A DNA stretch of 55,778 bases from an uncultured archaeon (GCA_964388035.1 CAYLZE010000023.1:1-55778), one strand, 5' to 3'; positions 13,854 through 54,482 are shown, numbered from the stretch's first letter. A program made the numbers and translations. Notes: a model not told the origin generated them from the sequence alone.

Positions 13854-15326
13854 ATGAATGTAAATAAACTAGAAGAAAATGTTTATGAGATTCCAGCTCA
13901 GACCTTAATGGTCCGGATGCAAAATAAGATAGAGAAATTTAAAATGCTAGTTCCGGCCAAGATTTATGCAAATGAATATATCATGGAACGGATCAAGCAA
14001 GATAAAACCTTAGAACAAATTGCTAATGTAGCGTGCTTACCTGGAATTCAAAAACATGCGATTGCTCTCTCAGATGCGCATCAAGGATACGGATTTTGTA
14101 TAGGTGGAGTGGCGGGAACTGATGCTGAAACGGGGATGATATCTCCTGGAGGTGTAGGTTATGATATTAATTGTGGAGTGAGACTTCTATGTTCAAATCT
14201 ATATGAGAAAGACATCATAACAGATCTTCCCGAAATATTAGATACAATCTTCAGAAAAGTGCCTTCAGGTTTAGGTTCTGAAGGAAAAATAAAAATGAGT
14301 TATTCTGAATTAGATTCCGTTTTAAATAATGGTTTAAATTGGGCTCTTGAAAATGATTATGCAATTAAAAAAGACCTGGAACATTGTGAAGAACGGGGCT
14401 GGTTACCCAACGGTAATTCCGATTTAATTTCACAGCGGGCAAAAGAAAGAGCAATTTCACAATTAGGATCATTAGGTAGCGGAAATCATTTTTTAGAAAT
14501 TCAGAAAGTTGATGAAATATTTAATGAATCTATTGCAAAACAATTAGGAATCACGGATAAAAATCAAATTACCGTCATGATTCACACCGGGAGTAGGGCA
14601 TTAGGTCATCAGGTTTGTACTGATGCACTCCGTAATATTGAACGAGCAATGAAAAAATACCATGTGAATGTTCCTGACAGAGAACTAGCTTGTGTTCCTG
14701 CAAATACGAAAGAGGCGAAAGAATATCTGAGTCAAATGGCTGCTGCGGCTAATTTCGGCTTCTGTAATAGACAATTGATTACTCATTGGGTACGGGAAGC
14801 TTTTAGTGAAATTAAGAAAAAAGATTTGGATGATTTGGATATGCATCTAATTTATGGGGTATGCCATAATATTTTAAAGATTGAAGAACACGATGTAGAA
14901 GGGAAAACGATGAAATTAAATGTTCATCGAAAGGGTGCCACCAGGGCTTTTCCCCCACATCATCCCGTGCTTCCCAATGATTATAAGGAGATTGGACAAC
15001 CCGTTCTCATTCCAGGAACAATGGGCTCAGCATCCTATTTATGCGTGGGAAAACCCAAGGCAATGGAGTTATCTTTCGGTTCCACGGCTCACGGTTCTGG
15101 GAGAGTCATGTCCCGTTCAAAGGCTATTAAAAAATACCGCGGTTCTGAAGTGAAAAAGGCATTGAGTAGGCAAGGCATTTTAATAAAAGCCGCCTCGATG
15201 AAAGTAATTGCTGAAGAAGCACCCGGAGCTTATAAAGATATTGATCAGGTAGTAAACGTGAGCCATGATTTAGAAATCATCGAGAAAGTAGTCCGGTTAT
15301 TACCAATTGGAGTAGTTAAGGGATAA
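13854..15326 (+). CDS. rtcB: tRNA-splicing ligase RtcB
   Basis: DAHQGYGFCIGGV, GGVGYDINCGVR, GSGNHFLE, HTGSR, HRKGATRA, HGSGR, EEAPGAYK. Confidence 0.98.
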   Translation: MNVNKLEENVYEIPAQTLMVRMQNKIEKFKMLVPAKIYANEYIMERIKQDKTLEQIANVACLPGIQKHAIALSDAHQGYGFCIGGVAGTDAETGMISPGGVGYDINCGVRLLCSNLYEKDIITDLPEILDTIFRKVPSGLGSEGKIKMSYSELDSVLNNGLNWALENDYAIKKDLEHCEERGWLPNGNSDLISQRAKERAISQLGSLGSGNHFLEIQKVDEIFNESIAKQLGITDKNQITVMIHTGSRALGHQVCTDALRNIERAMKKYHVNVPDRELACVPANTKEAKEYLSQMAAAANFGFCNRQLITHWVREAFSEIKKKDLDDLDMHLIYGVCHNILKIEEHDVEGKTMKLNVHRKGATRAFPPHHPVLPNDYKEIGQPVLIPGTMGSASYLCVGKPKAMELSFGSTAHGSGRVMSRSKAIKKYRGSEVKKALSRQGILIKAASMKVIAEEAPGAYKDIDQVVNVSHDLEIIEKVVRLLPIGVVKG

Positions 15327-15349
15327 TCAATAAGAGTAGAAATATCGCG

Positions 15350-15784
15350 TTATATATCGAACACGACTCGTATTTCCCACTTGTCTTTTTTTTTCTCAAT
15401 GTTCATTAAAGAATAGGTTATTGCTTTTACTTCCGTTCCTATAGCATGCTTTTCTTTATCGAATTTTTCTCCCCTTAATAATGCTTTTAATTCATGCTTT
15501 TCATTGAATTTCATATATTCGATGTTAATATCACTAAAGATCAAACTTTCAACGTCAAAAATATATAAAAATTCAGATAAGAAATCAAAGAGTAAAGATT
15601 CTTTATCCTCGGAAGTTATGGTTATCTCCTTTTCTACTTCTGGAGAGATCTTGTCTAAATCTGGTGAAATCGTAGCCATCAAACCAAATGCTGCTTGGAT
15701 ATAAGCACCTTCTAAAGTAGGCGCCCAACATTTCACCTGTACATCAGCGGTATTATCTTCAAATAGGAATCCCTTCTCGCTCAT
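15350..15784 (-). CDS. archease (RtcB cofactor)
   Basis: DNTADV, LLFDFLSEFLY, EVKAITY, VVFDI; convergent with rtcB. Confidence 0.95.
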   Translation of the reverse strand: MSEKGFLFEDNTADVQVKCWAPTLEGAYIQAAFGLMATISPDLDKISPEVEKEITITSEDKESLLFDFLSEFLYIFDVESLIFSDINIEYMKFNEKHELKALLRGEKFDKEKHAIGTEVKAITYSLMNIEKKKDKWEIRVVFDI

Positions 15785-15906
15785 TTTCGTTCCTTTAAAA
15801 TAGGTCTTTTTCTAACTAATAATTTAATGCGTTTATTCCAATTTATATTTTCTTTTAAATTTCATATTTTTAGTAGTTTATAATCTTAGAATTAAATCAA
15901 TATACG

Positions 15907-16389
15907 ATGTATCGAACAATTGAGGAAGATTTATTTTTTATTCAAGAAATTACTATAAAAAAGAAATTTACCAATCATGAGATGCAATTACATCATTTTT
16001 TTCATTCTCTTACTAAAACATATCCAACCAATGTTATTGTTATCGAGCCGTTTATTTTCTTTTTTGTTGATATAAGTGACTTTTTTAAAGCGAAATTATT
16101 CATCAATGCTCTGAGAAAAAAGTTAAATAAAAAAATTTTGATTATCAGAGAGGAGAAAACCTTGTTAAATTTGATTTTTGAGCTCTTCCCAGATATTTAT
16201 ATTCACGATATCAAATATGATAATGACAGGACGATCTCCGTTTGTTTTATCTCTTGGGAAGAACGAGGGATAGCCATCGGATGTAATGGAGATTATATTA
16301 AATCGATTAATGAATTTTTTAAACATTTCGTTCGATTCAGTGAAAATATAGAAAGATTATGTATCAAATGTGAGTTAGTGGAGATATAA
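15907..16389 (+). CDS. divergent NusA-like KH-domain protein
   Basis: ERGIAIGCNGDYIK KH loop; LNKKILIIREE..LIFELFP resembles archaeal NusA. Confidence 0.55.
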   Translation: MYRTIEEDLFFIQEITIKKKFTNHEMQLHHFFHSLTKTYPTNVIVIEPFIFFFVDISDFFKAKLFINALRKKLNKKILIIREEKTLLNLIFELFPDIYIHDIKYDNDRTISVCFISWEERGIAIGCNGDYIKSINEFFKHFVRFSENIERLCIKCELVEI

Positions 16390-16434
16390 CATCGAGCGTG
16401 ATATTGATCATTTTAATAAGAGAGAATCATTAAT

Positions 16435-52839: not shown

Positions 52840-53278
52840 TTTTCTCTCCTTTTAATTCTGATTGTTGCGAATGCTTTTATTTTAGATTCATTAAAAGAAT
52901 AATATCAAATTAAATAAAAAGCGCTTGCGGTATAACTTTCCCCCAAAGACTTGGAAAGAAATTGAATTTGGACTTTAAAAGAATTTAACTCGTGAATTAC
53001 TTGAATGATGCTTTAAATCATGATCTTTAATCAACATTCTGTTTCCAATTGCATGATCAGTACACGCTTATTAATCAATCAAATAAATTAGATGGGAAAA
53101 GCATTTTTTTAATTTTCATAAAACGCGTTTTAACGCCATATTATATACTAAGATTTTAACGATCATTATTCTCTTAAGAGCTCCACATTTTAAAATTACT
53201 TCAAAAAAAATTTCCCTTCAAAGTCATCTTAAACGTCCAAATTGGAAATATTCTGAAAAAAAGTATTATAAAGAAGTA

Positions 53279-53476
53279 GTGAAAGTGATTGAAAGTGCTT
53301 GCTCTCTGACATTCGAGCAAGCAGTTAATTTTAGAAACGAAAATTGGAAAGAATATAGCATTGGATGCATTTTATGCGGAAATCTCTGTAAATACATTGA
53401 ACAGTTTAATTTACCATCTCAAAATGATGTGAAAAACCATGATGGAACGCTAAAAAAATGGCTAAAACCCGAGTAA
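53279..53476 (+). CDS. small Cys-rich hypothetical protein
   Basis: 65 aa, CILCGNLC. Confidence 0.4.
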   Translation: MKVIESACSLTFEQAVNFRNENWKEYSIGCILCGNLCKYIEQFNLPSQNDVKNHDGTLKKWLKPE

Positions 53477-53852
53477 ATGATGTCTATTCCTCATAACGCC
53501 ATATAATGTGAAGAACCTAAACCATATCACTCGACAATTATGAATTGAAAAATATTTAAAAATAAAATTTAATCGTGAACATAAGAACAACATTTCCCCT
53601 TCTCTTTTTACGTGCAGCTTCACGCTGCATTCATTTCTTGTCTTTCTTTTCTCCGTTTTCCGTCAACAAATACTTTTCATGCTACTTCTTACACGCATTC
53701 TTTTCAAATACCCTCAAATTCTAAGCCTGAACCAACAAGCCCATTTCAACGCCAAACACTCGTGCTGTTGAGAGTGGCGGGCTAAACTGGTCGCCCAAAA
53801 GCTTCCAGCGTACACCCCCACCTCACCAACCCCGTCTTTTACGGGTGCACTC

Positions 53853-54085
53853 GTCTCGCTCTCACGGTACGCGTCACCGCATCCCGTCCGACTTCTCAGT
53901 TCACACTCACATTCACGCTATAAGTTCTCTTTCCATCACGCGCGGCGATCTCGCGAACACTTCTCAATGCTCACGCCACTTCATGCCGGAAATCCAGGAG
54001 ATGACCTCTGACCTTCACAGGATGCGTCTTATCACCTCCACCCGCATGAATGCAGCTTTACCTAATCCGTCAAACAGAACGAGAT
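53853..54085 (-). other. large expansion segment ES39 (helix 98) of 23S rRNA
   Basis: About 230 nt between conserved flanks, closed by GTCTCG/CGAGAT. Confidence 0.8.
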
Positions 54086-54273
54086 TGGGAGATTATTTTC
54101 AGGACCAGCTTCGTGCTTAGATGCTTTCAGCACTTATCTGTTAGCGCGTGGCTGCCCGGCAATGCCTTATCAGACAACCGGTAGACTAGAGGCGCCCGCA
54201 AATTGTTCCTCTCGTACTGAATTTCCGTTACCCTCAATCTCCCGACAAACCCAGTAGATAGAATCCGACCTGT

Positions 54274-54482
54274 TTCGTGTGGATAAAGATTGGGAAAAGC
54301 AGATTAACTCTTTCGTTAATTCCGTCAAACTTATAAAAATCAAATTTTTAAAATCAAGAAGGGGATTCTTAGGGGTTCACCCTCATTGACTTTATTTTAA
54401 TTTGTTAACTTGGTTTACTCTTCTTTCTTGAAAATTAACTTCAAATTCACTATTAGTGAATCCCTTACAATCTTTCATCCAA
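54274..54482 (-). other. 209-nt archaeal BHB intron in 23S rRNA peptidyl-transferase region
   Basis: Splits conserved CCGTCGTGAG|ACAGGTC; CGTG/CACG core, bulges AG|T and AA|A, 13-bp terminal stem. Confidence 0.88.

Follow-up and report, generated by a model that had tools for sequence, protein, structure and literature searches.

Probable bulge-helix-bulge introns in tRNA, 23S rRNA and tfe genes of a Loki-type archaeon, and the likely splicing of an mRNA by tRNA-splicing enzymes

The question raised by the DNA analysed here is whether an archaeon must pass a messenger RNA, as well as tRNA and rRNA precursors, through its tRNA-splicing enzymes. The window, by which we mean the whole stretch of 55,778 nt that was analysed (GCA_964388035.1, CAYLZE010000023.1:1-55778; contig C23), contains tfe, the gene of transcription factor E (TFE), interrupted by 30 nt that can be folded into a relaxed bulge-helix-bulge (BHB) structure. 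An initial annotation had placed eight BHB-type introns in the window, six in tRNA genes, one in the 23S rRNA gene and one in tfe, and all eight were found to be present at those places. We consider it likely that all eight inserts are archaeal BHB introns spliced by the endonuclease EndA and the RNA ligase RtcB, and the comparisons described below suggest that the cell very probably has to cut and re-join even an mRNA with these enzymes. The window belongs to a 5.47-Mb genome of 211 contigs with about 33% G+C, a metagenome bin that is 97% complete with an estimated contamination of about 7%. Close relatives appear in public records under the label Promethearchaeota (the Asgard phylum), and the source is a Loki-type archaeon.

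BHB candidates were searched with a layout consisting of an outer helix, a 4-bp central helix, a 3-nt bulge, an inner helix, the central helix, a second 3-nt bulge and the outer helix, with cuts placed after the second nucleotide of each bulge. A strict BHB (two 3-nt bulges on opposite strands with a 4-bp helix between them) was observed in five of the eight inserts, namely the D-loop insert of tRNA-Leu, the 37/38 and T-loop inserts of tRNA-Lys, the T-loop insert of tRNA-Cys and the 23S rRNA insert. The other three (tRNA-Leu T-loop, tRNA-Thr and tfe) carry one mismatch in the 4-bp central helix, which agrees with the relaxed motifs described at the outset. BHB-like shapes are frequent in this AT-rich DNA, with 63 sites against 55 for a mirrored-motif control; for this reason the evidence is drawn not from the motif count but from what each excision restores, namely a canonical tRNA, an rRNA stretch as in relatives, or a protein like its orthologues. 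Cutting and joining in silico restored a canonical product in all three classes: the tRNAs were recognised by ARAGORN with 7-nt loops, the 23S rRNA matched 16 relatives, and tfe regained the orthologous TGW in its relaxed register.

The tfe gene (36780-37406, plus strand) comprises two exons in one frame, separated by a 30-nt mini-intron (37074-37103, plus strand) with a hairpin and a relaxed BHB. A single TGA (37092-37094), located in the insert, interrupts an otherwise open frame across 36780-37406. The Pfam TFIIE_alpha profile is matched from position 39 to 68 in exon 1 and from 68 to 105 in exon 2, and the genome-wide search returned this one match, with no second tfe in the genome. In more than 20 genomes of the same family, TFE reads ...RRIRDKSTGWFIY(Y/F)WWHEFD... 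without an insert. In this genome, as in its single congener (L002), exactly 30 nt separate the Gly codon GGA from the Trp codon TGG; the site falls between the invariant STG and WFIY, and the insert blocks translation if retained. Splicing would join codon GGA (Gly) to UGG (Trp) and rebuild the winged-helix wing (RDKSTG|WFIY). As the in-frame stop would be removed in the process, only spliced mRNA could give rise to a full-length TFE.

Two more species (L031 and L032) came to light in a degenerate pattern scan of species-representative genomes; both have, at the same tfe site, a homologous insert of 31 nt, which puts the unspliced gene out of frame. Once these 31 nt are removed, exon 2 is an intact conserved open reading frame (ORF) that retains the four cysteines of the zinc ribbon. 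Further tfe inserts were sought in metagenome contigs by two pattern scans, which found none. TFEs with and without the insert are interleaved, and the N-terminal part of TFE in L031 and L032 is nearly identical to that of the intronless L008; this interleaving points to repeated loss or gain, as described for cbf5. The region common to the TFEs, about 55 highly conserved residues, would not resolve a tree.

The form of the insert is informative about what selection has preserved. Across the four sequences, 98% of the cells pair in the named structure of the hairpin and its flanking helices, compared with 15-45% when the partners are slid, and three pairs of the hairpin have changed on both sides in a compensatory manner, within a sample of four sequences from only two to three lineages. 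The peptides encoded by the insert differ between this genome and its congener, where a stop occupies insert codon 7 in both. On these comparisons, the tfe insert is evolving under RNA-structure constraint and not under protein constraint.

This bears directly on the idea that the insert is kept and translated as a 10-residue loop in the wing, through read-through of the TGA, recoding (including selenocysteine) or bypassing of the kind known from gene 60. The length of the insert is a multiple of three here and in the congener, and a beta-hairpin tip, where the site lies, could accommodate a loop. However, the homologues in the two other species are 31 nt long and contain TAA, so that read-through cannot work there; being out of frame, they also deprive read-through of any general explanatory value for tfe. 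The stem pairs co-vary, whereas the peptides that the insert would encode disagree at most positions. Bypassing fares no better, as there are no matching in-frame take-off and landing codons; the GGA downstream is 29 nt off and hence out of frame, and the 31-nt versions do not have it. We regard a translated insert as extremely unlikely. Two specific candidates were dropped on these grounds: programmed translational bypassing of the T4 gene 60 type, for which no matching frame-restoring codons were found, and stop-codon read-through or selenocysteine, for which the insert is not in frame in every carrier (31 nt in L031 and L032).

As a separate observation, all four tfe introns have their in-frame stop at the seventh codon, within the 3' strand of the hairpin (TGA in two, TAA in two). 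Selection for an early end of translation on unspliced mRNA might explain this, as might chance.

Another possibility is that tfe is not spliced at all, being either a decaying pseudogene or a split gene whose parts yield two separately made polypeptides. The in-frame stop is compatible with this, the gene callers behind the public records annotate the first part only, and the case for splicing in general is drawn from DNA sequence. Set against this, the gene is the sole tfe of a 97% complete genome, and its two exons, which contain no other stop or frameshift, are conserved intact across four species. Exon 2 contains no ATG (alternative starts were given only a glance), the break falls inside the winged-helix domain, and the insert is evolving under RNA-structure constraint. 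An unspliced tfe is therefore, in our assessment, very unlikely, and the reading of the insert as a BHB-type intron is retained.

The exact junction of this putative intron is less straightforward. Two registers of the same helices compete, and the productive junction is one that we infer. Several observations count against it. In each of the four sequences the strict register (CGGG/UCUG, bulges AA|A and GA|A) has a stability advantage of 1.6-2.2 kcal/mol over the productive one; in this genome its use would excise 28 nt (37075-37102), with the junction ...ACGGGAA|AUGG... and a frameshift. The orthologue-like 30-nt excision, with the junction ...ACGGGA|UGGUUUAU... (ACGGGA|UGGUUU), pairs ACGG with CUGG, leaving an A.G mismatch at one end of the central helix; in the 31-nt versions this productive cut further requires a 3' bulge of 4 nt. 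A second junction model, ...ACGGGAA|AAUGG..., adds one Lys codon (TGKW) and is self-consistent in all four sequences.

Splicing by EndA and RtcB at one of these other junctions would mean either the strict 28-nt excision, with a frameshifted and truncated product that perhaps throttles TFE, or the TGKW junction (27 nt here, 28 nt in the 31-nt versions). Besides its greater stability in 4/4 sequences, the strict register obtained the best score in the motif scan, and, applied to the 31-nt versions with the normal cut rule, it keeps the product in frame and adds a single Lys. Under TGKW, the A-to-G change of the congener at the last intron position is synonymous (AAA to AAG). Nevertheless, the 28-nt excision breaks the frame here and in the congener, yet exon 2 is clearly under purifying selection. 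The TGKW junction requires a 3' cut after the first bulge nucleotide in this genome, against the rule kept by the 23S and tRNA introns of the window, and in the intronless orthologues W follows G directly without exception. We consider such a junction unlikely, and continue with the orthologue-like 30-nt excision.

The exons next to the insert also show a pattern of pairing. Segments 37050-37058 and 37126-37134, which lie 23 nt upstream and 22 nt downstream of the insert and include GAAUUCGU and ACGAAUU, are complementary at 8-9 of 9 positions in the four intron-bearing genes, compared with a median of 6 of 9 in 18 intronless orthologues, the difference arising through synonymous codon choices. 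These segments could form an exon-exon clamp for the splicing substrate, a suggestion drawn from only two independent lineages.

Further TFE entries were observed in the protein database. At least five more ORFs terminate within a few residues of RDKSTG, and no two of these share a tail (KFI, RDKHIV, KLICFI, RSKYFI and KSTLFK, followed in each case by a stop), and tfe is annotated in public records as a protein of 83-100 aa. The public TFE record P0021 (162 aa) passes from ...RRIRDK straight to LQFEQNNYFF..., without the wing and the following helix; it may be the result of faulty assembly, or of a deletion that joined two similar RD(K/R) sites. Records P0019 and P0020 depart from the TFE family directly after RDK, each differently.

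An interruption of this kind might also be produced by assembly or binning, and the same applies to the other inserts. The genome is a metagenome-assembled one in 211 contigs, and its contamination, estimated at about 7%, has to be counted against the inserts; yet all of the features share a single 55.8-kb contig whose archaeal core genes are coherent, and the homologous tfe insert occupies the same site in three other independently assembled genomes. Artefacts would also not yield BHB folds that restore canonical products. The probability that the interruptions are artefacts is, in our view, close to nil, and we proceed with the eight inserts as probable introns.

Among these is the insert in 23S rRNA. 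The gene is represented by its 3' two thirds and ends at the contig end (53748-55778, minus strand; Rfam LSU_rRNA_archaea, 1266 bits), and the 209-nt intron (54274-54482, minus strand) has a perfect BHB with central helix CGUG/CACG and 3-nt bulges AG|U and AA|A, followed by a 13-bp inner helix. The Rfam alignment shows a 210-nt unaligned block within ...GACCGUCGUG[ ]GACAGGUCGG..., at about model position 2693/2694, which by our own count we take to correspond to about 2599/2600 on E. coli numbering. The predicted splice junction reads GUGAG|ACAGG, and the predicted product GACCGUCGUGAG|ACAGGUCGG was found uninterrupted and with 0 mismatches in 16 of the 40 relatives searched, including the same-genus genome; the uninterrupted junction was not found in this genome. 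Splicing would rebuild a universally conserved stretch of 23S domain V. Signs of mobility are absent, as the intron contains no ORF and occurs only once in the genome.

The tRNA genes illustrate how such inserts escape annotation. In its default mode ARAGORN reported no tRNA in the window, and Rfam reported one at both thresholds (tRNA-Thr, 53 bits, with a 45-nt insert in the anticodon loop), so that three of the four tRNAs were missed. With introns allowed, ARAGORN identified tRNA-Thr(CGU) with a 43-nt intron at 37/38, i(39,43). All BHB candidates were then excised singly and in pairs and ARAGORN was re-run, which recovered tRNA-Leu(GAG), tRNA-Lys(UUU) and tRNA-Cys(GCA) and gained no further tRNA in the window. 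Excision of the six inserts gives normal cloverleaves with 7-nt loops in all four tRNAs, bearing out the earlier claim of six introns in four of four tRNAs, four of them at non-canonical D- or T-loop sites. Four of the six tRNA introns are strict, and the tRNA-Leu T-loop and tRNA-Thr introns have one central-helix mismatch each.

Two of the genes are interrupted twice. The tRNA-Leu(GAG) gene (25334-25470, plus strand), which is 87 nt long to ARAGORN once both inserts are out, contains a 22-nt D-loop intron (25358-25379, plus strand; strict BHB GGUC/GACU, bulges AA|U and AA|C) that leaves a normal class-II D-arm when excised, and a T-loop intron of 30 nt at 59/60 (25427-25456, plus strand; C.U mismatch in the central helix) whose removal gives the T-loop UUCGAAU. 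The tRNA-Lys(UUU) gene (28642-28767, plus strand), recovered by ARAGORN after insert removal, has a canonical 37/38 intron of 18 nt (28680-28697, plus strand; strict BHB CUUU/GGAG) and a T-loop intron of 31 nt at 59/60 (28720-28750, plus strand; strict BHB with a 5-bp outer and an 8-bp inner helix). The tRNA-Thr(CGU) gene (26907-27022, minus strand), found by both Rfam and ARAGORN, carries its canonical 43-nt intron at 26943-26985 (37/38, minus strand), with a G.A central-helix mismatch and a 10-bp inner helix set off by internal loops. In the tRNA-Cys(GCA) gene (48723-48826, minus strand; ARAGORN after insert removal), a 30-nt T-loop intron at 58/59 (48741-48770, minus strand) has a strict BHB in which the outer, central and inner helices are 4 bp each. 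The 3' CCA is encoded in the tRNA-Lys (28765-28767) and tRNA-Cys (48723-48725) genes and is not encoded in the tRNA-Leu gene.

The initial annotation had proposed that a permissive EndA/RtcB system has spread introns into protein genes. The genome was scanned for BHB motifs with open frames on both sides (60 open codons per side), and hits were counted only where homology continues across the junction. The best-formed hits rebuild conserved motifs in three further coding genes, so that coding-region inserts are present beyond tfe; their absence would have refuted the proposal. A MoCF_biosynth gene has the junction ...ITSGGL|GPTFDD..., with the Pfam profile matched at 2-66 and then 67-143. A zinc alcohol dehydrogenase carries a 29-nt insert within its GICGSD motif (junction ...VKRCG|ICGSDVH...), a length that makes read-through impossible. 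A CO-dehydrogenase/prismane gene has a 31-nt insert with the junction ...CDMCCL|CTFGKC.... The coding inserts, including that of tfe, and the tRNA T-loop introns fall into one size class of 29-31 nt, near the smallest hairpin that carries a BHB.

The motif itself contributes little to this result, and this is a further point on the opposing side: BHB-like shapes beside open frames are no commoner than the mirrored control, so that the motif alone proves nothing. The open-frame filter was accordingly discarded as evidence, having no discriminating power alone (63 vs 55 mirrored), and a ranking of candidates by codon usage was discarded as well, being swamped by ordinary gene boundaries.

Two other genes were inspected. 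For uL16 and actin, the stretches of this genome matched by Pfam are free of internal stops. The uL16 gene (contig C35, L023, about 1940-2080, minus strand) starts with MAHRRPWHCYA, shows a frame break after about 11 codons and continues in another frame after about 31 nt; the strict motif finder recovered no BHB at this break. The BHB scan returned nothing at the actin locus, probably owing to its demand for 60 open codons per side.

The splicing enzymes that would be required are encoded in the genome. The gene of RtcB, the 3'-phosphate/5'-OH RNA ligase, lies at 13854-15326 on the plus strand (Pfam RtcB, 1.1e-165, profile 1-426 of 426), and its convergent neighbour at 15350-15784 on the minus strand encodes archease, the RtcB cofactor (Pfam Archease, 4.3e-43, profile 3-136 of 136); each is the only copy in the genome. 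The initial annotation had stressed that the ligase is encoded locally. Both genes are indeed in the window, but a significance of their position is not supported: they are single-copy housekeeping genes, and the introns that they would serve are spread over many contigs; the location of rtcB in the window looks incidental.

Two EndA paralogues were identified elsewhere in the genome. The 202-aa protein (contig C146) keeps the Tyr/His/Lys triad and aligns best with the catalytic subunit of A. pernix (3P1Z chain B, 1e-35), in an alignment that spans the Crenarchaea-specific loop and places K60 at A. pernix Lys44. The 200-aa protein (contig C33) has Ser at the position of the catalytic His. Two EndA matches were found in 28 of the 31 searched genomes of the order, three in 2 and one in 1, and because of this recurrence the second subunit is not contamination. 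A permissive EndA had been postulated for this lineage, and a two-subunit EndA with the Crenarchaea-type loop and key lysine is present, a trait already published for Asgard archaea. Kaneta 2018 described Asgard EndA as (alpha-beta)2 with the Crenarchaea-specific loop, a type that cuts relaxed and non-canonical introns, and the functional role of K44 in the A. pernix loop is given in the same source (PMC5829648). Judging by the 31 genomes, the permissive EndA is an order-wide feature and older than the tfe intron. The EndA of this organism would be expected to assemble as a heterotetramer and to cut relaxed motifs outside a tRNA context.

The proposed mechanism can be outlined as follows. EndA, composed of an alpha subunit with the Crenarchaea-type loop and a beta-like subunit without the catalytic His, would recognise two bulges about 4 bp apart and cut after the second nucleotide of each. 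RtcB and archease would then join the exons and probably circularise the intron. In the tRNAs, splicing would rebuild the D-, anticodon- and T-loops. Cleavage and ligation of these particular RNAs are what the folds and the enzyme complement lead us to expect.

Archaeal core genes observed in the window include those of RtcB, archease, CDP-archaeol synthase, Orc1/Cdc6, both PolD subunits and Cbf5, together with RpoH, RpoB, the proteasome-activating ATPase and anaerobic ribonucleotide reductase. Between 17229 and 25211, Orc1/Cdc6 (17592-18896) adjoins both PolD subunit genes, with a gene-free stretch of 363 nt upstream, and this region may be the neighbourhood of a replication origin. Ras-family small GTPase genes are typical of Asgard archaea, and two were found (25719-26747, plus strand, and 46685-48379, minus strand; Pfam Ras 1.9e-50 and 3.8e-52), one of them with a long C-terminal extension ending in a zinc ribbon. 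Within 4914-5351 (minus strand), and especially 4961-5144, the G+C content rises to 75% in a genome of 33% G+C; the ORF at 4914-5351 encodes 145 aa with a Pro/Gly-rich repeat (GGPPGG-like), and the stretch has no Rfam match. The cbf5 gene (28994-29983, plus strand) is an uninterrupted ORF of 329 aa with all domains present, and starts 227 nt downstream of the doubly interrupted tRNA-Lys gene.

With respect to novelty, the tRNA intron load and the EndA architecture are already published. The new element supported by the four-genome comparison is a putative BHB-type intron in the sole tfe of an Asgard lineage, together with further interrupted protein genes. A broader proposal goes well beyond this and is, in our view, unlikely: that this Asgard family depends routinely on EndA/RtcB mRNA splicing, including that of TFE mRNA, with introns gained and lost gene by gene, and that the unproductive tfe register could gate TFE output by splicing accuracy or capacity. 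If true, a prokaryote near the eukaryotic stem would run protein-only mRNA splicing, and the competition between tfe registers would be a primitive splicing gate on transcription. Should RNA data confirm splicing, Asgard archaea would be prokaryotes with mRNA splicing in ordinary gene expression, which would bear on how the ancestors of eukaryotes handled interrupted genes before the separation of transcription and translation. On the practical side, gene callers would be truncating or splitting such genes, and 'missing' or 'broken' core genes in Asgard bins may be spliced genes.

Several known systems can be compared with these inserts. The tRNA genes of the window resemble the multi-intron and non-canonical-intron tRNA genes of Thermoproteales and Asgard archaea, which have BHB introns in the D-arm, anticodon loop and T-arm, several per gene, and are missed by standard finders (Kaneta 2018, PMC5829648; bioRxiv 10.64898/2026.10.13.758758). 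For its focal Asgard families, the preprint counts 2.2 intervening sequences per tRNA gene on average, and it reports inserts in the D-arm that tRNAscan-SE overlooks (bioRxiv 10.64898/2026.10.13.758758). The tRNA part is an instance of this published pattern, from which it differs in nothing essential. Like the 23S intron of the window, the rRNA BHB introns of crenarchaea are BHB-bounded inserts in the conserved 23S core that vary between close relatives, and such introns are mentioned together with ORF-less deletion derivatives (PMC2738675). The 23S intron described here differs in being without a homing-endonuclease ORF, in its length of only 209 nt and in its Asgard host; a literature search found no paper on 23S rRNA BHB introns in Asgard archaea.

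For tfe, a parallel in function is provided by HAC1/XBP1. There IRE1 cleaves and RtcB or Trl1 ligates, in a protein-only reaction with stem-loop-defined cuts that leave 2',3'-cyclic phosphate and 5'-OH ends. A role of RtcB in XBP1 splicing is mentioned in PMC8718801. As proposed for tfe, this is protein-only splicing of a transcription-factor mRNA with joining by a tRNA ligase; the differences are that the endonuclease is IRE1 and that HAC1/XBP1 is a regulated stress switch, whereas nothing here shows regulation.

A second parallel is cbf5. Its pre-mRNA intron in Desulfurococcales and Sulfolobales was reportedly described by Watanabe in 2002 and Yoshinari in 2006. The cbf5 introns are 16-44 bp long, often with relaxed motifs, and occur in hosts with hetero-oligomeric EndA of broad specificity (Yokobori 2009, PMC2738675). 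In the literature searched, archaeal mRNA splicing by the tRNA-splicing machinery is confirmed for cbf5 of some Crenarchaeota only (PMC2738675); a 2025 paper on these enzymes has the same three cbf5 papers in its reference list, and a 2026 splicing review leaves cbf5 unmentioned. Like the putative tfe intron, the cbf5 intron is a short BHB-type insert in coding sequence, often relaxed, that disrupts a conserved motif and is patchy among close relatives. Relaxed motifs, as in the productive tfe register, are typical of cbf5 introns and are a known speciality of the two-subunit endonuclease. In contrast to that system, the gene concerned is tfe and the lineage Asgard, cbf5 itself is uninterrupted, and the intron is predicted from DNA sequence. 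Whereas cbf5 stood alone, tfe appears as one of several interrupted protein genes in the same genome.

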